In this document: positions 587 through 63,849 of the stretch, piece by piece
Numbering within the stretch: the first letter of the stretch is position 1
Layout of the letters: every line of letters begins with the position of its first letter
Assembly: GCA_947176385.1 (NCBI GenBank)
Contig: CAMWQN010000002.1
Span: 8,245-72,244, forward strand
Source of the DNA: an uncultured Rickettsiales bacterium
GTDB taxonomy: Bacteria > Pseudomonadota > Alphaproteobacteria > Rs-D84
Direction: 5' to 3'
DNA: 64,000 bases
The notes under the pieces: generated by a model
Told to the model about the DNA's origin: nothing
What the model saw: only the letters and a program-made list of their open reading frames with translations
Databases searched by the model: none
Position numbers and translations under genes: made by a program

Positions 587-627
587 TTTGTTTCAGATTC
601 TCGAACCGACACGGTTCAGTCCGACCA
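587..627. repeat. 41-bp perfect direct repeat, copy 2
   Basis: Identical to 287-327, exactly 300 bp downstream. Confidence 0.9.
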
Positions 628-739: not shown

Positions 740-971
740 GGATGACTGGGTTCGGGACCTGAAAAATCCCATATAGAGACGATGCGGGTAATTACCATCA
801 TCGTAATCCGACACTACGTCGGTGCATTATTGCGCCGTTGTTTTATGAACCCGACTGTATTCCGGTCGGGGGTCTGTGATTATAAAACAGGACACGTCCA
901 AAGGTCACAGGGGTCATTTCTCTATATGATTTTTTCAATCCCCGACCGCCGGTTTTCATGGCGGTTTTTTT
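740..971 (+). promoter_or_regulatory. Structured 5' leader L1 with terminator/antiterminator architecture
   Basis: P1 is TGAAAAA (760-766) paired with TTTTTCA (931-937). Hairpin X1:X' is CCCGAC (850-855) with GGTCGGGGG (864-872). X2 CCCCGACC (940-947) overlaps the terminator ACCGCC-N9-GGCGGT plus T-run (945-971). Confidence 0.6.
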
Positions 972-3752: not shown

Positions 3753-3784
3753 TCATATTGCAACGGGAAACCGGCGCATGGGTG

Positions 3785-3912
3785 TAAGAACCCACAAACG
3801 AAAATATTTACTCCACTTTATCGGTTGGAGGGCTGTGATATATCTAAATAAGCAGCACTATACGTTTGTAGTTCTTAACCTCCAGCCGTTTGGTTTTTAC
3901 CAGACGGTTTTT
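3785..3912 (+). promoter_or_regulatory. Structured 5' leader C1 upstream of an HTH gene
   Basis: P1 is TAAGAAC (3785-3791) paired with GTTCTTA (3871-3877). X' is GGTTGGAGG (3823-3831). X2 CCTCCAGCC (3879-3887) overlaps the terminator CCGTTTGG-N6-CCAGACGG plus T-run (3886-3912). Confidence 0.55.
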
Positions 3913-5745: not shown

Positions 5746-8208
5746 TTACATTACGATATCTTCGCAATCTGGTCCCTGGGTTTGAACATCACAACTTTGT
5801 TTTTTGCCAATGCCCAAGAATCCGCCTTTCTTGGTACAACTCTGTGTAGAAATCGTTGTACACACATGGCATGTACGGTTTTCGCGATTGAATAATGCAG
5901 ATACAGTTTTGGTAACACCACTGCCTGCAGTTGTTGTATATTGCGATTCCATATTTGCAGCCTGGCTCATCAAATCAGACTTCGCCATACCAGCACTGAC
6001 ATCATAACTGATTGCATATGGTGCCGTCAATGGGGTATCAACCGCCGCGGTGCCAACACCGGCACTGCCACCATTTTGTGCAATCTTTTGACACATATAT
6101 TGCGCCTGGTCAGCCGATGCATCCTTGGTCGCATCTGCGATTGCCTGATTCAGTTTCGCATTATAGTTATTTTGCGCCTGACGCAACGCGGACACTGCAA
6201 TCTGCATTTTAACCTGGGTCAACAGGTTCGGGAAACGCCCTGTGGTTTTATCATTTGCCTTGCCCGTGATTTGTGACAGGTTACGTCCATTCACACAGAA
6301 TTGAATTTCTGGATCTTGTTCAATCATTTCAATCGTACGATTGATTGTACCGGCGATATTATTCAATTCTTCTTCGATTGATGACATAATGCCATCAGCA
6401 TTGGCAACATCTGCATTGCGATTGCGTACCTGGGTCAGGTATTCCTGAACACCGATTTCGCCCGGTCCCAATTTAGTTGTATTATCTTCGCCAACATCTT
6501 TTGTGCGACCAGTTGCATCACCCATTTTGATACTGCCGAATGAAATCATACCGGTTACGCGATATATATCACCATCCTTTTGTGAACGCAAAGAACCAGT
6601 TCCCATCGTATCGTCAGTCGCAAAACGGTTGCAATCGGTGGTACTGCCACAAACTTCTTCCATTTTTGCATCAACAATATTTTGACACTGTTCCAATGCA
6701 GCATTATCAATATTCAGATACAGCCCCATCAACATAGAATCCAAATCATCCATTGAAAATGCCGGATTATTCTGTTTGCAAACAACCAGTTTATCCAATG
6801 GGCAAATATCGTGGATATAGTCATAATCCATACCCAAACAATTTTCGAAATTCGGACCGCAACGATTTTCATCGGTAAAGCAATCTTTGACCTCTTGCGT
6901 ACAGGCATCGACACGCATTGCAGCCAATTTATCTTTGACATATCCCCAGATTAACGGTTCCATACGTTCACAAGGATCAATTTCGACCTTGCAAAAACTG
7001 CGCACCATATCCGGACGGGACAAGCATGCGTCCATAGTATCTACACCCTTGCCTACTATATCATCTCTACATGCGGTCTGAATACATTGTGAAATTGTAC
7101 TTAAACATGACTGACGGAATTTAGATTCAGCCTGATTTTCTGCCAGGCGGATTGTTGGCGCAGCCTCGCGCAGGAAAGCCGGCCATACTTCATCACGCAC
7201 GACCAAGCATTGGTCCAAAACATGTTCGCAAATAAAACGCTTTGATTCCAGCATTTCCAACGTTGATGCTGTGATATCATATTTATTAACAGTTGCAACG
7301 GTTGTATTCGCGGTGGACTTTGCCTTTTGATTCTGCATATTTTCCGACGCGATTGTCGAAACACAATTTTCCCAACCATTACCACAGGCATCATCAGTCT
7401 GCATGCACTTTTTAAATTCAACCATGCATTGACCCAGGTTATATTTGTTCGCAGAATCAAAACTTTCTTTTAATGCAGTGCGAACCTCGCCCTGGGCGGC
7501 GGCTAATTCAATTTCTGCCGCAGACTTCTTTTCAGCCAGGCTGTTTTTAAATCCTTCGCAGTCGGACACAATCTGACGTGCATATAATTGATGCAAGAAA
7601 TTTGTATCTTTTTCACAGTTGGCTGGAATTTGTGCCAGGCAAACCTCTTCTGCCGCTGCAAATAATGCAGTACCTGTTTTGGTTGAAATATCGTTTATGG
7701 TTTCTTCATCATCATCGTCGTCATACAGATTGCTGTTAAACAGCGCCATTAAATCTGCACGCTTTTTTGATTTTGTTTCAGCTGCCGATAACTGGTCAAC
7801 CTTTACTAAATTACCATTTTCATCATAACGACGTTCACCAGTAAATATAATATCCGCCTGGGCACCAGCTTTGACCTTTTCCACCTCTATCGTGCGGATG
7901 CGTTCTGCTTCGACCAATATATCCTGGATTTCAGAAAATTCTTTTTCATACTTTGCACTGTCATTACTGCATGCGCAACTGCCACCATTTGTGTTATCGG
8001 CAATACAGAATTGATCCAGACATCCGAAATACGCGTCATAACATTCCTGCTGATAAAGTCCTGTTGCCGTAACCTTGTTACGAACAAAAGTCCCCTTTTG
8101 AATTGCAGATTGTTTTCCGGTATTTTTGGTGGTTGCAGCATAACATGCGGGCATCATAACAATACCCGCAATTATCATAGCAATACCAACAAATGTATTT
8201 CGCTTCAT
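5746..8208 (-). CDS. Large secreted cysteine-rich coiled-coil protein, core family member (820 aa)
   Basis: Signal peptide present. N-terminal motif is CYDAYFGCLDQFC, with conserved Cys pairs (GQCMVEFKKC, CEHVLDQC, RQSCLSTISQC, DACTQEVKDC) and a C-terminal CHVC..C..C tail. Confidence 0.85.
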   Translation of the reverse strand: MKRNTFVGIAMIIAGIVMMPACYAATTKNTGKQSAIQKGTFVRNKVTATGLYQQECYDAYFGCLDQFCIADNTNGGSCACSNDSAKYEKEFSEIQDILVEAERIRTIEVEKVKAGAQADIIFTGERRYDENGNLVKVDQLSAAETKSKKRADLMALFNSNLYDDDDDEETINDISTKTGTALFAAAEEVCLAQIPANCEKDTNFLHQLYARQIVSDCEGFKNSLAEKKSAAEIELAAAQGEVRTALKESFDSANKYNLGQCMVEFKKCMQTDDACGNGWENCVSTIASENMQNQKAKSTANTTVATVNKYDITASTLEMLESKRFICEHVLDQCLVVRDEVWPAFLREAAPTIRLAENQAESKFRQSCLSTISQCIQTACRDDIVGKGVDTMDACLSRPDMVRSFCKVEIDPCERMEPLIWGYVKDKLAAMRVDACTQEVKDCFTDENRCGPNFENCLGMDYDYIHDICPLDKLVVCKQNNPAFSMDDLDSMLMGLYLNIDNAALEQCQNIVDAKMEEVCGSTTDCNRFATDDTMGTGSLRSQKDGDIYRVTGMISFGSIKMGDATGRTKDVGEDNTTKLGPGEIGVQEYLTQVRNRNADVANADGIMSSIEEELNNIAGTINRTIEMIEQDPEIQFCVNGRNLSQITGKANDKTTGRFPNLLTQVKMQIAVSALRQAQNNYNAKLNQAIADATKDASADQAQYMCQKIAQNGGSAGVGTAAVDTPLTAPYAISYDVSAGMAKSDLMSQAANMESQYTTTAGSGVTKTVSALFNRENRTCHVCTTISTQSCTKKGGFLGIGKKQSCDVQTQGPDCEDIVM

Positions 8209-21884: not shown

Positions 21885-22580
21885 TTATTCATAATAGCAA
21901 CGGCTGCCTGCCGGAACAATCTGATATACACCTGTAACATCATAACCTTGACTTTCGGTTAAATAGCAGCCTTGGATTGTTTCATTTGCCCCAGGGTCTG
22001 ATTCCCCTGCTTTTGTGGTGGCACTCATTGGACACTGCGTACATCCCGTCATTCCCATTGCACCAAAACCCTCAATATAATTTTCCTTAATCGCGGAACT
22101 GGAACCATAAAAACCTGCAGCGCAACGATGTTTTGAACGTTTTTCCCACGTACAGGTACTGGTATTACATTCGGTCCACGTATTTGTCTGATATCCATTC
22201 CAAGAATCTTTCCAGGCATCCTCGTCATACTCAATTTCTGAATTTGGGTCACATGTCTTTGCCACACTGCACGGTTGGCATACATATACACCACCATTTC
22301 TATTGCTGCACCCCATTGCCACAAAATCTGGGTCCAACGTCAGGATATAGCCATCTTCGCACATATGACATATCTGAAATTTTCCGGCTTTACCAGTTGA
22401 TTTATTTATATAGCACAACGAATACGGAAACATATACTGTTTACAATGTGCAATATTCTGTGCGGGTTCTGCAATTGATGCACACGTTTCGTTATCAGAT
22501 GGCGCCATTCCGCATTGTGCATATGCTAATTCGGTCGTTAAAAATGTTGACATTGTAACGATTAAGAGTTTTTTATTCAT
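21885..22580 (-). CDS. Small secreted cysteine-rich protein, paralogue of 1004-1699 and 40216-40890
   Basis: Signal peptide present. The shared C-terminal module is RCAAGFYG..GCTQCP..GCYL..D.TG.Y..C.YE. Confidence 0.8.
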   Translation of the reverse strand: MNKKLLIVTMSTFLTTELAYAQCGMAPSDNETCASIAEPAQNIAHCKQYMFPYSLCYINKSTGKAGKFQICHMCEDGYILTLDPDFVAMGCSNRNGGVYVCQPCSVAKTCDPNSEIEYDEDAWKDSWNGYQTNTWTECNTSTCTWEKRSKHRCAAGFYGSSSAIKENYIEGFGAMGMTGCTQCPMSATTKAGESDPGANETIQGCYLTESQGYDVTGVYQIVPAGSRCYYE

Positions 22581-22812
22581 TATTCAATCTCCTGCTGTTG
22601 TAAAAACAAAACCACCATTTTTGGTGGTCAGGAGGTTGATGACAATTACAGGAATTGTGTTGCGTATTGGATATTTCGCAAACCCTCCTGACCCTGGGTC
22701 AGGAGTTTGTTTTTCGTCTGAACATCAAAACAGGCGCAATACGCGCCACAAGAATCCATTCTGACGCCTGTATAGAGGTCATCACACCCCATCAACGGAA
22801 TCCCCGTTGACA
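22581..22812 (-). promoter_or_regulatory. Structured 5' leader L2, homologous to 40891-41131
   Basis: See findings for detail. Elements are P1 TGATGAC/GTCATCA, the X1:X' hairpin, and X2 overlapping the terminator ACCACC-N6-GGTGGT plus U-tract. Confidence 0.65.
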
Positions 22813-22818
22813 TTATTT

Positions 22819-22847
22819 ATTATATAATGCCGGGCATATAAATACAA
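22819..22847 (-). promoter_or_regulatory. Sigma70-like promoter TTGTAT-N17-TATAAT
   Basis: On the minus strand, TTGTAT runs 22847->22842 and TATAAT runs 22824->22819, with a 17-nt spacer. Confidence 0.6.
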
Positions 22848-25858: not shown

Positions 25859-26118
25859 TGCGATACCCCCATGTATAAAAAAAGACCGTCATTGGATGAC
25901 GGTCGGGGAGTTCACAAATCATTCTGTTATTGATTCCATTGGTCTTTCGGCGAACCGTATTATATAACCAACAGCCCCCCGACCAGTATATTTGGTCAGG
26001 GATAAATAACGATGCAAAAACAACAGAATGTCGGATTAACGACGCTTCTAAGATTTGCACCGAACAGAATAGACCTGTGAAAGTCCCGAACACGTTTCCC
26101 AACGAGTTCACAAAAAAT
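25859..26118 (-). promoter_or_regulatory. Structured 5' leader L3, homologous to 36753-37020
   Basis: P1 is TTCACA/TGTGAA. X1:X' is CCCTGACCA with TGGTCGGGGGG. X2 CTCCCCGACC overlaps the terminator GACCGTCAT-N3-ATGACGGTC plus U-tract. Confidence 0.65.
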
Positions 26119-33539: not shown

Positions 33540-34694
33540 ATGCAAACAAAAAAAATTATTTCTGCGCTGGCATTGGTTGTTGGTTTGCTGGCTGCAAACA
33601 GGGCTGACGCCTGTACAGGTATCACCCTGAAATCCCAAGACGGTGGCACAGTCGTTGCCCGAACAATTGACTGGTCTGGCGCCGAAATGGATAACATGTA
33701 TGTAATTATGCCACGTGCAACAACACAAACATCACTATTGCCGAACGGTGTATCCGGCGGGATGCAATTCATCAGCAAATATGGATTTGTTGGACTGGCA
33801 GTTGAAATTCCGCAATTCGTTGTAGATGGCACAAACGAAGCAGGTTTGTCCGCCGCCCTGTTCTATTTCCCGGGCTTTGGCGAATACCCGGAATACAATC
33901 CAGCCGACAAAGACAAAAGTATTGCAGACTTTCAATTAGTATCATGGATACTGTCGAACTTTTCAACAATTGACGAAGTCAAGGCAGCAATCCAAGACAT
34001 CAGTGTCATAAATATTGACCGGCGTGCTGCAACAACACACTGGCGTATAACCGAACAATCCGGACGCCAGGCAATTTTGGAAATCGTCGATGGGGTACCC
34101 CACTTCTATGACAGCAAGGTTGGCGTATTAACAAACGCCCCAGGATATCCGTGGCACCTGACAAATCTGAACAACTATATAAATCTGACGTCTGGGACAA
34201 TGAATCCACATAAATTGGGATTTGGTTCAACAACCCTGAAATCACTCAGTAATGGTACAGGATTCCTGGGGATGCCGGGCGACATGACGTCCCCATCACG
34301 CTTTGTACGTGCTGCATTCTTTTCACAATATTCACGCCCGCAAAAATCAACATATAAAAGCGTAATGCAGGCATTCCATTTATTAAATAACTTTGATGTG
34401 CCAATCGGTGCCCAGTACGCAATTGATGACACCCCACCAAACATGCCATCAGCGACCCAGTGGACAATTGCGACAGACCTGAAGAATCACATCATATATT
34501 ACCATACAATGTATGATCGCACGATACGCAGAATTGATTTTAATGATATTGATTTTGCACGTGTTCCATACCAGGCACATCCATTGGATGAACACAACAC
34601 CCAAACAATAATTGACGTACCAATCAGCACAACCAGTAATATCCCGTCAATGAAAGAACTGGAAAAAATCGCCGAAAAAGTATTCAAGCGATAA
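33540..34694 (+). CDS. Secreted linear amide C-N hydrolase (choloylglycine hydrolase / penicillin V acylase family)
   Basis: The signal peptide ends ..NRADA, followed by the Ntn nucleophile CTGITLKS.DG..V.ART.DW. Length and motifs fit the CBAH family. Confidence 0.8.
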   Translation: MQTKKIISALALVVGLLAANRADACTGITLKSQDGGTVVARTIDWSGAEMDNMYVIMPRATTQTSLLPNGVSGGMQFISKYGFVGLAVEIPQFVVDGTNEAGLSAALFYFPGFGEYPEYNPADKDKSIADFQLVSWILSNFSTIDEVKAAIQDISVINIDRRAATTHWRITEQSGRQAILEIVDGVPHFYDSKVGVLTNAPGYPWHLTNLNNYINLTSGTMNPHKLGFGSTTLKSLSNGTGFLGMPGDMTSPSRFVRAAFFSQYSRPQKSTYKSVMQAFHLLNNFDVPIGAQYAIDDTPPNMPSATQWTIATDLKNHIIYYHTMYDRTIRRIDFNDIDFARVPYQAHPLDEHNTQTIIDVPISTTSNIPSMKELEKIAEKVFKR

Positions 34695-36752: not shown

Positions 36753-37020
36753 CAAAATCCCCTTGTAAAAAAAGACCGTCATCAGAACACGACGGTCGGG
36801 GTGGTTCGAAAATCATCTTATCATTGATTCTGTCAGTCTTTCGGCGGAACCGTGTTTTATAACCGACAGCCCCCCGACTGAGATAGTCAGGGATAAATAA
36901 CGATACAAAGTCACAGGAAATTATTGGAATAACGATGACCTATGCTTTTGCACCGGATAAGAATAGCCTTCGACAGCCCCGAACCTGTGTCCCCACAAGT
37001 TCGTTTAAATAATAACATAA
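36753..37020 (-). promoter_or_regulatory. Structured 5' leader L4, homologous to 25859-26118
   Basis: P1 is TCGAA/TTCGA. X1:X' is CCCTGACT with AGTCGGGGGG. X2 CCACCCCGACC overlaps the terminator GACCGTC-N10-GACGGTC plus U-tract. Confidence 0.65.
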
Positions 37021-37104
37021 ATCATGATGGTCGTCCACCACATTTGTGTGGAGATAGATTTTTTAACGACAATGCGTTTTTCATGCGATGGACAACCATA
37101 AGAA

Positions 37105-37260
37105 CAAAAAAATGCCACCTAAAAAAACACAGGCGGCTGGAGGTTGAGACCAATAATCAAGTAGTATTGTCGGTTTATTCAATATATTCACCGAACTCCA
37201 ACCAGTGTTGGATTACAATATCCGCAATGCGGATACGACTTGATATGGGGTCTCAATCCC
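37105..37260 (-). promoter_or_regulatory. Structured leader module C3, stacked upstream of L4
   Basis: P1 is TTGAGACC (37256->37249) paired with GGTCTCAA (37151->37144). The hairpin is CCAAC-ACTG-GTTGG. X2 CCTCCAGCC (37143->37135) overlaps the terminator GCCGCCT-N10-AGGTGGC plus U-tract. Confidence 0.55.
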
Positions 37261-37374
37261 AGCGCAACAAATCGTTGCACCGGCTGCATTATACTACAAC
37301 TTTTTTATTTCGCTACAATTTTATTAAAAAAAGTTCCGATAAATATCGGAACTTTTTTTACGCATTTGTAATTT

Positions 37375-40890: not shown

Positions 40891-41131
40891 TATTCAATCT
40901 CCTGTTTTTTCGTAATGAAAAACCACCCAAAATTCAGGTGGTCAGGAGGTTGATGACAATCCATAGAATTGTGTGCTTATTCGTTATATTCGCAACCCTC
41001 CTGCCCACAAATTGGTCAGGAGTTGTTTTTCCGTCGTAACAGTAAAATTGGCGCAAAATGCGCGCCCCTATAAACATATTCCGACGCTATGGCAGAGGTC
41101 ATCACACCTCATCATTGGAATTCCCAATGAC
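40891..41131 (-). promoter_or_regulatory. Structured 5' leader L5, homologous to 22581-22812
   Basis: Same helices as L2 with compensatory changes. The terminator is ACCACC-N9-GGTGGT plus U-tract (40922-40942). Confidence 0.65.
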
Positions 41132-41137
41132 AAAATT

Positions 41138-56859: not shown

Positions 56860-59847
56860 TTAGAACTGAGTATCCGAACATGTTTCCACAGGATCAGCCC
56901 ATGATTTGCAATACTTTTTACCAAACAAAGGATTTCCTTTCTTGGTGCATTGCTGGCTGCGAACACATTTATGACAATTCAATGTTTCCCATTCAAATGT
57001 CGATGTGATTACTTCCTTGTAATTCCATTGATTCAACTGTTTAGAACCAGTCAATTCACGCTGTTCAGATGCATCTGCACCATTTGATTTTCCATCTTTT
57101 GATGAACTGACCATACCGGCAATTCCTGCCCCAACCAAGGCCGCACCACCTGCTGTTAATCCCAAACTTAACCCACCGGTAAATGGAACAGCAACAACAC
57201 CAACAGCCGCAGCAACACCACCAACTACAGTCGAAAGAGCCCCACCGACTGCACCAAAGAACTGACTGCCGAATCCTTTTGGTGGGTTTGGTGACTTAGG
57301 CAAAGAAGATATTTCCGCGAAAGACACACATGCAACACGGGCAAATTCACGGCGTGCATCCATTGCGTTTTCACCCTGGATTTTTGCCATACGTTCACCC
57401 ATTGTGGCATAATCCTGTAACATCTTTTGATTCAATTCATCAAACTTCTTATAATAATTTTCCTTGGCAACCTTTAACGCCTGGGTTGCGATAAGCATAC
57501 GCATCTGTTTGGTCAGCCCCGGGAATCGTGCCGCATCCGCAGATTTTTCGCCAATTCTGCTGCGGGTGTCATTACCACTGCGTTTCATACCCTGAACTTC
57601 GCGTCCTGTCATACAGAATTGAACCGTTGTATCTGATTCTATAATATTGATAGCGGTATCAATATTTTTCTGTAACAAAGCCAGTTCCGCACGTACGCGT
57701 TCTTTTTGCGCATCGGTTGCATCCTTTTGATTTGCACGATCCAGATATTCATCAACAGAAACCAGACGACCGTCATCATCAAAGTCAACACTTTCCCAAT
57801 ATATTGTACCATCCAAGACCCCAGCAAATGGTGTAATTGGTCCCAATCCCGCCGATGTAGAACCTTCGACACGTCCTAATTCAGAATCTTGGATTTGTGC
57901 TATATCAGTACGGCAACCTGAATACGATATATCCATTGTATTATTATCTGACTTATATTCACAAATCTTATATTCCAGGGAACGTGCGCCAATATTTTCA
58001 TCAACGGCAAGCCCATTACAAGATTCAGTATCGCCACAAACTTTAATCATAGCCTCGTTTGCGGCATTTTGGCATTGAGTCAAGAAAGTATTATCGATAT
58101 TCAACATAATACCCTGAACCATATCAGCCAGTTTGTCATATACTTCATTACTTTTGACTTGTGTATTACCATACAGTTCGACACAGCCTGTTAACTTTTC
58201 ATATGGGCACATACGAATAATAGAGTCTGTATCCAAACCGACGCACTGCGAGAAGTCGGATCCGCATCGATCATCGGATGTCAAGCAAGCTTTAACTTCT
58301 TTGGTACAAGAATCGACACGCATAGAAGCAAGACGTGCGACAACAAACTGCCAGATTTGAGAACTTTCAGCATCTTTTTTAGAATTTGTGCTGATACCGC
58401 ATGCATTCAATGGAATCTTACAAACATTTAACATTGTCAACGGACGTGACAAGCACATGTCATAAGAACCATCTGGGTCATTTGGATCCATGGTATCTTT
58501 ACAAGCCTTTTGGAAGCAGGCAGAGATATTACCAACGCATTCTTGTCTTGCTTTGTCTTCTGCAATCAATTCAGCGGATTTAATTTGCGGTGCGATTTCT
58601 CTCAGGAAAGTATCCCAAACTTTATCTTTTACTGCAACACAGGATTCAGTAATACCCATACACAGTGGCTTTTTACCTTCCAATGTGTCATAAGTTGATG
58701 CAAAAATTTCTATCGTTGTAGCACTGCCCTTAATCGCATACATCTTTGTTGCGTTCTTGGTGCTTTTGGTTGTGTTTGTGCTATCCATTGCAGATACAGA
58801 TGCACAGTTTGAAAAATCTTCACCACAACCACCGGTAGTAATCATACATTTTTTAAATTCTGTTGTACACTGACCCAAGTCATACTTGTTTGCAATATGT
58901 AATTGTTCCAATGCAGCCTCTCTTAACGCCTGTTCTGCTGCATATAATTTTTGTGCACTGGCATTCTTTTGCTGTTTCAGACTGTTTTCATATGCCGTAC
59001 AATCTGAACGGATTTTTTGTGAATACATCATCTGCAACATTGACAGATCGCTGCCACATTCAGGCATTTGTTGTGTGCAAAGTTGTGCGGCTGCACGATG
59101 TAATGCATCACCTTCTTTGCCATCAACCATGCTTTGCATGCTGTTTGTTTCACCAAATATATCGTCTGTATCAAAATCAACCACAGTATTCCAGGCAGAC
59201 AAATCCAATGCTTTACGTGCACTTTTCTTCTTTACCTGTTCTTCTTTCTTTATTACAGACTGCGCGGCAGCATTTGCATTGGCAATTGCCTGGTCAGCAT
59301 CGCTGCCCATTTCAATTTTTTCAACCCCAAATGTTGCCATTTGATAACTTTGTTGATCCAATTTTTCAATTTCTGCCAATATATCGTCTAATTCTGCGCT
59401 TCTATCACTGCAAATACAGCGTCCACCACTTGTATTGTCCAGCATACAGAAAGAATCCATGCAACCTTCATATTTCTGGCGACACTCTTCGCTGACAACA
59501 GTATTTTGTGTTGCTGCTGCAACCTTGGTACCAGAATTAATAACCTTCTGAGTGGTTGCTGCACGTGCGCCAACTGCTGCCGGCTGTGCTGCTGGGGCTG
59601 CACCACGTGTTGCCACTGCGCGTCCTGTGGTCGCTGCCCGCGCTGCTGCCGCTGGTGCGGCTGCATTTGTTGCGGGGGCACTATTTCGTACTGCCGCACG
59701 GGCAGACGTTGCACTTCGTGCCGCTGATGTCCCAGCTGATGACGAGGCTGTCGTTGCCGTGCCACCGCGACGTTGTCCCGCCGTTGCAGCATTTGCGTTT
59801 GTACCCAAAGCCGCTAAAACCATAATAAAAAAGGCAAATAATCTCAT
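56860..59847 (-). CDS. Large secreted cysteine-rich coiled-coil protein, core family member (995 aa)
   Basis: Signal peptide and an Ala/Arg/Thr-rich linker. Motifs are CRQKYEGCMDSFC, conserved Cys pairs collinear with 5746-8208, a long glycine zipper, and a C-terminal NCHKC..C..C tail. Confidence 0.85.
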   Translation of the reverse strand: MRLFAFFIMVLAALGTNANAATAGQRRGGTATTASSSAGTSAARSATSARAAVRNSAPATNAAAPAAAARAATTGRAVATRGAAPAAQPAAVGARAATTQKVINSGTKVAAATQNTVVSEECRQKYEGCMDSFCMLDNTSGGRCICSDRSAELDDILAEIEKLDQQSYQMATFGVEKIEMGSDADQAIANANAAAQSVIKKEEQVKKKSARKALDLSAWNTVVDFDTDDIFGETNSMQSMVDGKEGDALHRAAAQLCTQQMPECGSDLSMLQMMYSQKIRSDCTAYENSLKQQKNASAQKLYAAEQALREAALEQLHIANKYDLGQCTTEFKKCMITTGGCGEDFSNCASVSAMDSTNTTKSTKNATKMYAIKGSATTIEIFASTYDTLEGKKPLCMGITESCVAVKDKVWDTFLREIAPQIKSAELIAEDKARQECVGNISACFQKACKDTMDPNDPDGSYDMCLSRPLTMLNVCKIPLNACGISTNSKKDAESSQIWQFVVARLASMRVDSCTKEVKACLTSDDRCGSDFSQCVGLDTDSIIRMCPYEKLTGCVELYGNTQVKSNEVYDKLADMVQGIMLNIDNTFLTQCQNAANEAMIKVCGDTESCNGLAVDENIGARSLEYKICEYKSDNNTMDISYSGCRTDIAQIQDSELGRVEGSTSAGLGPITPFAGVLDGTIYWESVDFDDDGRLVSVDEYLDRANQKDATDAQKERVRAELALLQKNIDTAINIIESDTTVQFCMTGREVQGMKRSGNDTRSRIGEKSADAARFPGLTKQMRMLIATQALKVAKENYYKKFDELNQKMLQDYATMGERMAKIQGENAMDARREFARVACVSFAEISSLPKSPNPPKGFGSQFFGAVGGALSTVVGGVAAAVGVVAVPFTGGLSLGLTAGGAALVGAGIAGMVSSSKDGKSNGADASEQRELTGSKQLNQWNYKEVITSTFEWETLNCHKCVRSQQCTKKGNPLFGKKYCKSWADPVETCSDTQF

Positions 59848-62381: not shown

Positions 62382-63011
62382 TTACCGCACATGTGCCGCA
62401 AACAATGCTGCGCGGAAAGTAGAAAAATAAGCACCACTGCGCACAAACCAGTCCGCCACACTGGATACAGCGCATTCTGGATAGCTATAATTGCCGTCAC
62501 CAACCCAGGATTTGCAATACAATTCGTATTTACCTGTTAATTTGTTTTTAACGATTATGTTGCCAACAACTGCTCTGCCCTTTTGGTTATATTTTGGATT
62601 GCTTATCGGATTACCATAGCCTTTGAATGATACACTATCTATTGTCATTGTTATGGATGCCGCAAATTCATACTGCTGACTGAATTTTGGTTCTCTTTCC
62701 ATCGCAGTCTTAAATTCTTTTACGTGCTCAGCATTTTCAACCTGACCGTCTATCGTGTAACCGTTATATTTATTTGTGTTCCACATGTTAGTTTCACAGT
62801 TGTAATATACAACGTTTGTATGACCAACTAAACGCTGTACAACAGCATCATTCAATTTTTCTGATGTCCCAGCTGATTTGACCTGTGGCGCTTTATCATC
62901 ATGTACCACAGTGGCACGCGATAAAATTTGCTGTTGCAATTCCCAATCCGCGGGGGACAACTTATAGCGAACACCATCAATGACTATATCTTTATTCTTT
63001 TTGTCTGCCAT
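62382..63011 (-). CDS. Hypothetical protein, tandem paralogue A
   Basis: Start placed at MADKKNKDIVIDGVRYKL; the ORF track begins at 63101. It is highly similar to 63202-63849 and has its own promoter and terminator. Confidence 0.65.
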   Translation of the reverse strand: MADKKNKDIVIDGVRYKLSPADWELQQQILSRATVVHDDKAPQVKSAGTSEKLNDAVVQRLVGHTNVVYYNCETNMWNTNKYNGYTIDGQVENAEHVKEFKTAMEREPKFSQQYEFAASITMTIDSVSFKGYGNPISNPKYNQKGRAVVGNIIVKNKLTGKYELYCKSWVGDGNYSYPECAVSSVADWFVRSGAYFSTFRAALFAAHVR

Positions 63012-63201
63012 GATATTTCTCTTGTTTTTTATTGACATACAAGATAGCAATATTTCATATTTTGTCAAATGATTTATAAAAACACAGGATTGCCACGTCA
63101 TGGCTTACACCATTCCTCGCAATGATAATGGGGATACACTCTGGACACTGAACTCTATAAAAAAATCCCCCAACTGGGGGATTTTTTATTGCACGCATAG
63201 A

Positions 63202-63849
63202 TTACCGCGTATGCGCCGCCAACAATGCGGCACGGAAAACGGAATACCTGGCACCGTAGTCCGCAAACCCGAACGCCCCGCTGCGGACAGCGCCGCGCGG
63301 ACTGAAGAAATCGTAAACGCCAACCCAGGATTTACAATACAATTCATATTTACCTGTTGCCTTGTTTTTAACAATTATGTTTCCAACAACCGCTTCACCA
63401 TTTTGGCTGTATTGTGGGTTGCTTATCATCTTAGCCCAGCCTGGGTAAAATGCCTTACCTATTGTCATTGTTACAGATGCTGCAAATTCATACTGTTGAT
63501 TGAATGCTGGAATGTTTTCCATCACAGACTTAAATTCTTTTACACGCTTGGTATCTGTGTCCTGACCGTTTATCGTATAGCCATTATACTTACTTGTGTT
63601 CCACACATTTGTTTCACAATTATAATACACAACGTTTATATGACCAACCAGGCAATTTACTACGATATCTGTCAGTTTCTCAGATATTACTATTACTTTT
63701 TCTGTCGCGACTGGTTTGATATCTGATTTAACAGGTGATGCTTTATCATTATTTACCACAATGGCACGCGATAAAATTTGCTGTTGCAATTCCCAATCCG
63801 CGGGGGACAACTTATAGCGAACACCATCAATAACTATATTTTTATCCAT
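63202..63849 (-). CDS. Hypothetical protein, tandem paralogue B
   Basis: MDKNIVIDGVRYKLSPADWELQQQILSRA... About 60 nt of its 5' coding sequence are identical to paralogue A. Confidence 0.65.
   Translation of the reverse strand: MDKNIVIDGVRYKLSPADWELQQQILSRAIVVNNDKASPVKSDIKPVATEKVIVISEKLTDIVVNCLVGHINVVYYNCETNVWNTSKYNGYTINGQDTDTKRVKEFKSVMENIPAFNQQYEFAASVTMTIGKAFYPGWAKMISNPQYSQNGEAVVGNIIVKNKATGKYELYCKSWVGVYDFFSPRGAVRSGAFGFADYGARYSVFRAALLAAHTR

Follow-up and report, generated by a model that had tools for sequence, protein, structure and literature searches.

In this study, we report a structured RNA that is encoded eight times in a 64,000-nucleotide (nt) stretch of DNA from an uncultured Rickettsiales bacterium (contig CAMWQN010000002.1), hereafter called the window. 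The copy at the centre of our analysis (copy D) lies on the minus strand in the region 22578-22847, just ahead of a gene for a cysteine-rich secreted protein. This covarying, multi-helix leader is a genuine and well-supported RNA family of more than 200 sequences, and we read it as a previously uncatalogued cis-acting transcription-attenuation family, that is, an orphan riboswitch-like element. Judging from its sequence, the region is probably an mRNA 5′ leader that acts in cis as a transcription attenuator, with a swap of pairing partners deciding on termination. Its architecture is unusual in that terminator, antiterminator and anti-antiterminator are all made from a triplicated sequence placed within a pseudoknot-clamped junction.

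Copy D belongs to the second of the three subtypes defined below (type II) and specifies a leader RNA of about 210 nt. The elements follow one another in the order promoter, hairpin P0, hairpin P2 (whose loop is the 5′ strand of a pseudoknot, PK), 5′ strand of helix P1 (P1a), arms, X1:X′ hairpin, hairpin P3, linker, 3′ strand of P1 (P1b), 3′ strand of PK, X2, terminator and ribosome-binding site (RBS), as listed here:

22847-22842 and 22824-22819, minus strand: sigma-70-type promoter TTGTAT / N17 / TATAAT, read from the sequence
22810-22804 and 22798-22792, minus strand: P0, 5′-terminal hairpin TCAACGG-ggatt-CCGTTGA, supported by covariation
22790-22787 and 22778-22775, minus strand: P2, hairpin GGGG / CCTC (GGGG-tgTGATGA-CCTC), supported by alternation of GC, AU and GU pairs
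22784-22778, minus strand: 5′ strand of PK, TGATGAC, inside the P2 loop, supported by covariation
22772-22767 and 22652-22647, minus strand: P1, the true long-range helix closing the junction, TACAGG / CCTGTA, supported by covariation
22766-22715, minus strand: type II-specific arm, P1.1 (CGTCAGAA / TTCAGACG) around hairpin P1.2, supported by alignment and covariation
22747-22733, minus strand: P1.2, GGCGC-gtatt-GCGCC, supported together with P1.1
22705-22697, minus strand: X1, CTCCTGACC, the anti-antiterminator strand, linked to X′ by the loop CAG
22693-22684, minus strand: X′, GGTCAGGAGG, which pairs with X1 or X2
22681-22660, minus strand: P3, hairpin TTGCG-aaatatccaata-CGCAA, with a covarying stem
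22658-22654 and 22646-22642, minus strand: P4, ACAAT / ATTGT, enclosing the 3′ strand of P1, with modest support
22643-22637, minus strand: 3′ strand of PK, GTCATCA, just 5′ of X2, supported by a permutation test and covariation
22635-22626, minus strand: X2, CCTCCTGACC, directly after GTCATCA-A, its last 3 nt being terminator 5′ arm
22628-22601 (hairpin 22628-22611), minus strand: intrinsic terminator ACCACC-aaaaat-GGTGGT followed by the U-tract TTTTGTTTTT, supported by covariation
22594-22589, minus strand: RBS CAGGAG, read from the sequence
22580-22578, minus strand: ATG of the open reading frame (ORF) for a 231-aa cysteine-rich secreted protein without a Pfam family

Transcription is predicted to start at about 22812, at the foot of P0, which places the predicted 5′ end some 120 nt upstream of X′. 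In most of 127 homologues a promoter of the form TTG..N17..TATAAT ends 3-4 nt ahead of the start of the covariance model. The P2 loop measures 7-9 nt in the aligned copies and P1 begins directly 3′ of P2; the sequence of P1 differs in each copy, and its 3′ strand ends 1-4 nt before the 3′ strand of PK. Enclosed by P1 are at least one variable arm, the X1:X′ hairpin and P3, whose A/U-rich loop carries a universal ..UAU..AA.. pattern. Types I and III have either a shorter form of the P1.1/P1.2 arm or something else in its place. Between X′ and X2 lie about 50 nt of structured RNA, made up of P3, the 3′ strand of P1 and the PK strand; X2 is a near copy of X1. P4, which overlaps the first 2 nt of the 3′ strand of PK, may be an alternative or auxiliary structure.

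A preliminary description of this leader had been made from the sequence alone. All the elements that it listed for copy D are present on the minus strand where it had placed them, and it was right that a structured leader with a terminator recurs in the window; it had missed the true P1, P3 and P4. What it took for the closing helix P1, TGATGAC/GTCATCA, has its 5′ strand in the loop of a 4-bp hairpin (GGGG/CCTC), so that this pairing forms an H-type pseudoknot and not a nested closing helix. Likewise, its hairpin GGCGCG/CGCGCC exists, with a stem of 5 bp (GGCGC/GCGCC) instead of 6 and the loop GTATT.

The fold was examined on two alignments. A5 comprises 28 type II relatives from other genomes together with two copies of the window (D and E), and was turned into a type II covariance model (R1); A6 was derived with the model and holds 135 matches, 128 of them distinct sequences, from all subtypes. 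The minimum free energy (MFE) of the copy D leader is -80.4 kcal/mol (z = -5.7), and none of 200 shuffled sequences folded as well. In A5, 93.8% of the cells are paired vs 80.8% in shuffles, and PK is paired in 100% of its cells with four pair types. The earlier proposal that the helices compensate each other was upheld when homologues were added: in the 128 distinct sequences of A6, 93.8% of the cells are paired, vs 68.7% in shuffled alignments and 40-48% with slid partners, and double-sided changes occur at 52 of 54 pairs. Helix by helix, A6 gives:

P0: 97.3% paired, 7/7 pairs covary
P2: 95.6% paired, 4/4 pairs covary
PK: 95.8% paired, 5/6 pairs covary with double-sided changes
P1: 97.7% paired, 6/6 pairs covary, each with all four Watson-Crick types
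X1:X′: 92.3% paired, 9/9 pairs covary
Terminator: 99.1% paired, 5/6 pairs covary

The terminator hairpin has a mean energy of about -11.6 kcal/mol across the family. P4 is paired in 85.6% of cells and undergoes an A-U to U-A swap, being ACAAU/AUUGU in type II vs CUAU/AUAG in type III. PK is absent from the model, so its pairing counts are unfitted. Part of the sequence set had initially been gathered with a descriptor demanding these helices; for this reason PK was also tested separately on 74 instances selected only by the X′ motif, X2 and the terminator. A perfect 7-mer PK was found in the instance's own upstream region in 65 of them, vs a mean of 11 and a maximum of 17 when upstream regions were swapped among instances (200 permutations). 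Our first structural descriptors, written in Python, matched reversed-sequence controls in 59/192, 450/728 and 68/171 cases; they were dropped as too loose, and the covariance model and the permutation test were used in their place. We also noted that, in the nested MFE structure computed with ViennaRNA, GGGGU of the P2 5′ arm binds ACCUC, the 5′ half of X2, and the PK helix is thereby lengthened to 12 bp (22626-22790); this is possible because the 3′ arm of P2 and X2 both start with CCUC. This alternative was rejected, being paired in 90.8% of cells vs 89.3% in shuffles, with no covariation support.

Scanning the window with R1, with filters off, returned exactly eight full-length matches (32-213 bits, E = 6e-9 to 4e-68), the next being a 13.9-bit partial fragment. 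This is the number of loci given in the preliminary description; the copies other than D had first been located by eye and by repeat search. They fall into three subtypes, which differ in their junction arms:

745..970, plus strand: copy A, type I, 33.2 bits, upstream of a 231-aa cysteine-rich secreted protein
25880..26112, minus strand: copy B, type I, 38.3 bits, upstream of a 920-aa autotransporter (Pfam Autotransporter match)
36770..37005, minus strand: copy C, type I, 32 bits, upstream of a 664-aa cysteine-rich protein
22578-22847 region, minus strand: copy D, type II, 213 bits, upstream of the 231-aa cysteine-rich secreted protein
40917..41134, minus strand: copy E, type II, 199.8 bits, upstream of a 224-aa paralogue and 75-78% identical to copy D in blocks
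3756..3912, plus strand: copy F, type III, 55.3 bits, upstream of a 108-aa helix-turn-helix (HTH)-like protein (weak Pfam HTH_31 match)
15833..16019, plus strand: copy G, type III, 49.2 bits, upstream of a 78-aa protein
37110..37284, minus strand: copy H, type III, 45.7 bits, in tandem, upstream of copy C

A model built on type II only detects all eight, and the three subtypes, different as they look, are homologous. With an identity of just about 52% and with compensatory changes, the copies are not recent repeats, and a repeat or mobile-element reading was dismissed on these grounds. Within each subtype X′ hardly varies (GGTCAGGAGG, GGTTGGAGG and GGTCGGGGAG), and P1, PK and P0 drift freely.

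The family extends well beyond the window and precedes many genes for secreted proteins and small regulators in gut Alphaproteobacteria with tiny genomes. R1 has 135 matches in 1.46 Mb of loci from related gut metagenome-assembled genomes (MAGs; Rs-D84 / Candidatus Enterousia-like), and 77 further copies were found in metagenome and viral loci. The exact type II pattern GGTCAGGAGG-N40-70-AACCTCCTGRCC occurs in 98 metagenome stretches, named human-gut assemblies included, and about 70 of the 82 metagenome loci that were fetched contain full-length matches. In most copies a start codon lies 19-35 nt past the U-tract and opens a gene in the same orientation. In the window, these genes encode three weakly related cysteine-rich secreted proteins without a Pfam family (copies A, D and E), the 664-aa cysteine-rich protein (C), the autotransporter (B) and two small HTH-like proteins (F and G); no leader stands at the housekeeping genes of the window (clpXP, nrdR, recO, rnhB, pgk, tpiA, grpE, rpoA and rplQ). 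Leaders also occur in tandem: type III copy H lies directly upstream of type I copy C (36770-37284, minus strand), and on a metagenome contig (L102, 8588-9381, plus strand) three successive copies precede a 62-aa HTH-like gene that adjoins clpX. Copy G and its 78-aa gene adjoin clpX in the window as well. A 12-kb contig classed as viral in IMG/VR (L184) bears a full-length type II leader at 10386-10594 on the minus strand (153.9 bits); the contig may be bacterial and wrongly assigned, or the copy may be carried by a phage.

One RNA design thus stands eight times in 64 kb, ahead of small HTH-like proteins and of a large part of the secreted and surface repertoire, and is therefore probably a principal means by which these bacteria control how they present themselves to host or partner cells.

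The preliminary description had proposed that X′ can pair with X1 or X2, that X2 overlaps the 5′ arm of the terminator, and that X′:X2 and the terminator are mutually exclusive. Our data agree with each of these points. Both pairings of X′ are conserved and the three strands change together. X′:X2 is paired in 89.8% of cells, in a region that was not aligned by structure, and it covaries both between and within subtypes. The central triplets of X1/X′/X2 are U-A-U (56), A-U-A (26) or C-G-C (10). At two outer positions a G in X′ faces an invariable C in X2, and X1 may be C, U or A; the 3′ end of X1 often forms G.U pairs or mismatches with X′. As a consequence of these outer positions, X′:X2 is the richer in Watson-Crick pairs, and it has more of them than X1:X′ in 70 of 80 sequences. 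The X′:X2 duplex, at -18 to -21 kcal/mol vs -10 to -14 for the X1:X′ hairpin, is the stronger in 110 of 111 sequences. It is also 1 bp longer, an extra 3′ G of X′ being pairable by X2 only, and we infer that this G could serve as a minimal toehold for strand invasion. Across the family, X2 and the 5′ arm of the terminator share three alignment columns; given this 3-nt overlap and the conservation of both structures, X′:X2 and the terminator exclude each other, and the logic of anti-antiterminator, antiterminator and terminator holds.

These features can be combined in the following mechanism. The RNA would fold co-transcriptionally from its sigma-70 promoter, with P0 forming first, then P2, then the 5′ strand of P1 emerging, followed by the variable arm or arms, the X1:X′ hairpin and P3, until the 3′ strand of P1 shuts the multi-helix junction. 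The next 7 nt would pair with the P2 loop to give the H-type pseudoknot clamping the base of the domain, and X2 would come directly after it. If X′ is held by X1, the last 3 nt of X2 would be free to start the terminator and the polymerase would halt with about 25 nt to go to the start codon; should X2 take X′ from X1, the terminator would be left without the base of its stem and the gene would be transcribed. The choice of partner is presumably regulated, with the pseudoknot-clamped junction as the likely sensor, and the topology suggests control by a ligand or a factor. As for the sign of the switch, our committed guess is that the compact fold with X1:X′ is the effector-bound one and leads to termination, and that X2 invades the relaxed fold and allows read-through, following PyrR-type or OFF-riboswitch logic.

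Several points weigh against this mechanism. In nearly all copies the MFE of nested folding is X1:X′ plus the terminator, a state that lies 11-19 kcal/mol below the best nested X′:X2 state; this comparison forces P1 and PK open because X′:X2 crosses P1. With nested folding favouring the terminator, read-through would need kinetics, a pseudoknotted ON fold or a factor. By our own bookkeeping, a pseudoknotted ON fold keeping P1 and PK would be approximately isoenergetic with the OFF fold until the 3′ arm of the terminator is made, and in that case the outcome should be kinetic and easily biased. In addition, no ligand is suggested by the downstream genes, which encode an autotransporter, cysteine-rich secreted proteins and small HTH-like proteins. 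The unpaired nucleotides that are universal across the three subtypes are few, fewer than in most small-molecule aptamers, and the X sequences vary little within a subtype, possibly because a factor recognises them in addition to their pairing.

What might operate the attenuator can be narrowed down tentatively. It may be a new riboswitch class, although we would not put this above a possibility, in which a pseudoknot-clamped four-way junction binds a small molecule or second messenger and controls dozens of surface, secreted and small regulator genes by co-transcriptional strand exchange, with X2 ousting X1 from X′. The complex structure, the pseudoknot and the tandem use argue for a specific fold; the non-metabolic gene set and the few universal unpaired positions argue against a typical metabolite. 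If the riboswitch reading is true, the element would be a major regulatory device in the sub-megabase gut Alphaproteobacteria of the Rs-D84 / Enterousia group. It is also conceivable, with similar reserve, that attenuation depends on a factor, either a protein comparable to PyrR, TRAP or other RNA-binding antiterminators or a trans-acting RNA, which would read the subtype-specific X1/X′ or the P3 loop and thereby set the partner of X′, the junction being a scaffold and not a small-molecule pocket. A regulon of surface and secreted proteins with no metabolic pathway and the scarcity of universal unpaired positions would suit such a factor, as would an X′ that is nearly invariant within a subtype while P1, PK and P0 drift. 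However, this near-invariance could equally come from slow evolution, which an element with three partners should show even with no factor involved, since any one change calls for two compensations. Moreover, the window was found to encode no candidate RNA-binding regulator, no additional X-like sequences occur outside the leaders, and the Rfam models for leaders bound by proteins such as PyrR give no match.

Other explanations dispense with attenuation as the main event. The terminated leader of about 200 nt could be a trans-acting small RNA (sRNA), as has been claimed for the Rfam family sRNA-Xcc1, with read-through incidental. Copy H preceding another leader instead of a gene, the three tandem copies on L102, the A-rich loops and U-tail and a sub-threshold resemblance of type I to sRNA-Xcc1 would all fit; we nevertheless find this unlikely, given that a start codon in the same orientation follows most copies after 19-35 nt, that X1 ties up X′ in the terminated RNA, and that PK and P1 have sequences unique to each copy, which points to intramolecular pairings. 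Control at the level of translation, as the main or an added effect, was considered because X1 and X2 (CUCCUG) may mimic an anti-Shine-Dalgarno sequence, so that the copy freed by X′ would mask the RBS. In about 40 of 55 type II genes the RBS is CAGGAG, the exact complement of CUCCUG in X1/X2, type I genes tend to have GGGGG or GGAAG, which match their own X′, and X2 resembles the 3′ end of 16S rRNA. Yet a CCUCC-like sequence complements any Shine-Dalgarno sequence, the likeness of the RBS may reflect common descent of the whole 5′ untranslated region with a paralogous gene, and a canonical terminator with its U-tract is always present, all of which make this explanation improbable. We regard as very improbable that the leader is a constitutive feature (a stabilising 5′ domain with a leaky terminator, or a dispersed repeat) that does not switch and in which the complementarity of X2 is a by-product of its being a repeat of X1. 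Although nested folding does favour the single state of X1:X′ plus terminator, X2 tracks X′ through independent changes and stays Watson-Crick where X1 decays to U or A, the copies have diverged to about 52% identity with compensatory changes, and their position is fixed relative to promoters and start codons.

Among known systems, the three-structure attenuators of the pyr/PyrR and trp types come closest in mechanism to the proposed attenuator. They include the Bacillus subtilis pyr leaders, regulated by PyrR, the trp leader with its 1:2, 2:3 and 3:4 pairings, and the B. subtilis trp leader, regulated by TRAP. As in these systems, one strand picks an upstream or a downstream partner, the downstream partner overlaps the 5′ arm of a terminator, and the element is located between promoter and RBS. 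Unlike them, the present family has neither a conserved leader peptide nor a recognition motif for PyrR or TRAP; its X′ and X2 are kept apart by about 50 nt of structured RNA, and an H-type pseudoknot clamps the entire domain. A trp-type leader peptide was rejected, as an ORF preceded by a Shine-Dalgarno sequence and spanning X1 is found in only one of 128 copies; where X1 could be aligned (121 copies), a 5′ ATG is absent from 33, and an ORF starting with ATG extends as far as X1 in only 36. Copy D has an ORF of 55 codons that begins with the ATG at 22813 and crosses X1, X′ and P3 (22649-22813, minus strand), which is not conserved: it meets a stop after 15 codons in copy E, and 33 homologues have no 5′ ATG. 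Rfam gave no PyrR match, and no triplet-repeat array of the TRAP type ((G/U)AG) is visible in the sequence.

With riboswitches that use terminator platforms, the family shares a covarying, multi-helix, pseudoknotted fold, a location in cis, mutually exclusive terminator and antiterminator structures and an occurrence in tandem. The many copies per genome recall cyclic di-GMP riboswitches or T-boxes in some species. A covarying structured domain and a mutually exclusive expression platform are thus both present. In contrast to a generic riboswitch, the gene set is not metabolically coherent and includes no genes of a common function pointing to a ligand, and no leader variant with another expression platform was seen; X1:X′ is itself one arm of the junction, so that sensor and platform cannot be separated into modules.

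The preliminary description recognised no known riboswitch, T-box or leader-peptide class, and this stands insofar as no Rfam family reaches its gathering score, with the qualification that type I resembles sRNA-Xcc1 below threshold. Scanned against Rfam 15 at gathering thresholds, the whole window yields two tRNAs only. Permissive scans gave nothing better than E of about 1 for the copy D leader and only sub-threshold matches to sRNA-Xcc1 and isrK for types I and III; T-box models matched neither at the gathering nor at the E-value thresholds of these window and permissive scans. Our literature searches found neither a riboswitch in Rs-D84 nor a description of a similar attenuator.

The sRNA-Xcc1 family (RF02221) deserves closer attention. 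Its model scores two type I copies at 24.5 bits (E = 0.067; copy C) and 31 bits (E = 0.001), vs a gathering score of 53; these matches span only X′ to X2, and type II copy D gives none. With this model, true members taken from a Neisseria record and from one plasmid each of Pseudomonas and Nitratidesulfovibrio reach 69-73 bits, and R1 does not detect the true members that were fetched. Both sRNA-Xcc1 and the type I copies have a closing helix with a G-rich and a C-rich strand, a hairpin with an AUACAA...GAA/AAA internal loop and a U-rich stretch ahead of the C-rich strand. By contrast, true sRNA-Xcc1 members have no X1, P0, P2, PK or P1, and they form a second local hairpin where our family has the 3′ strands of P1 and PK pairing far upstream. 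Of the sRNA-Xcc1 three-way junction, therefore, the closing helix and the first hairpin are found, in type I only, and the second hairpin is replaced. Membership was rejected on score and architecture, and the 3′ half of type I may instead be a distant relative. sRNA-Xcc1 has been described as an 88-nt sRNA, in which the closing helix is the 3′-terminal structure (PMC2996969), and it is located upstream of symE and ORF6N genes (bioRxiv 10.1101/2025.06.18.660453; 10.1101/2020.03.17.996009). In two of the records that we fetched (L085, 1198-1280; L084, 1182-1272), the members lie about 40-50 nt upstream of a gene on the same strand, encoding a BRO family protein and a hypothetical protein, and in a third (L083, 1185-1270) no gene is annotated there. 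This so-called sRNA family may thus also be a 5′ leader or attenuator, a reduced relative of the one described here.

A further system in which one segment has both an upstream and a downstream partner is c4 RNA, whose a′/b′ segment is complementary to the upstream a1/b1 and downstream a2/b2 repeats of the same transcript. In phage P1, pairing of c4 blocks translation and leads to Rho termination. The pairing proposed for our leader would, unlike that of c4, prevent intrinsic termination, and the genes concerned are chromosomal and not part of a prophage immunity region. Of the Rfam models for c4 (RF01695, the phage P1 antisense RNA listed in PMC2864571) and isrK (RF01394), only isrK gave a match, at 16.9 bits and E = 0.32 on copy H, and neither matched copy D.

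The relatives of the organism are Candidatus Enterousia and allied gut MAGs. The order Rs-D84, which includes Enterousia, consists of uncultured gut Alphaproteobacteria with genomes mostly below 1 Mb (PMC12306168). A GC content of 42% and genes for CcrM, ClpX/P and RpoA mark the window as that of an uncultured alphaproteobacterium. One of its proteins is 100% identical to a protein of a MAG labelled 'Alphaproteobacteria bacterium', and exact look-ups of two window proteins returned no record. A gene of the choloylglycine (bile salt) hydrolase family at 33540-34694 (plus strand) fits a gut habitat. Four large paralogous secreted proteins (5746-8208, 8243-10411, 10854-13328 and 56860-59847), 22-34% identical to one another, have conserved cysteine motifs, no Pfam match and no leader, and two further paralogues, 64% identical, lie at 62382-63101 and 63202-63849. 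Finally, a perfect 41-nt direct repeat (287-327 and 587-627, plus strand), its copies 300 nt apart, is found just downstream of a tRNA with a long variable arm (153-234) and could mark a site of integration or duplication.

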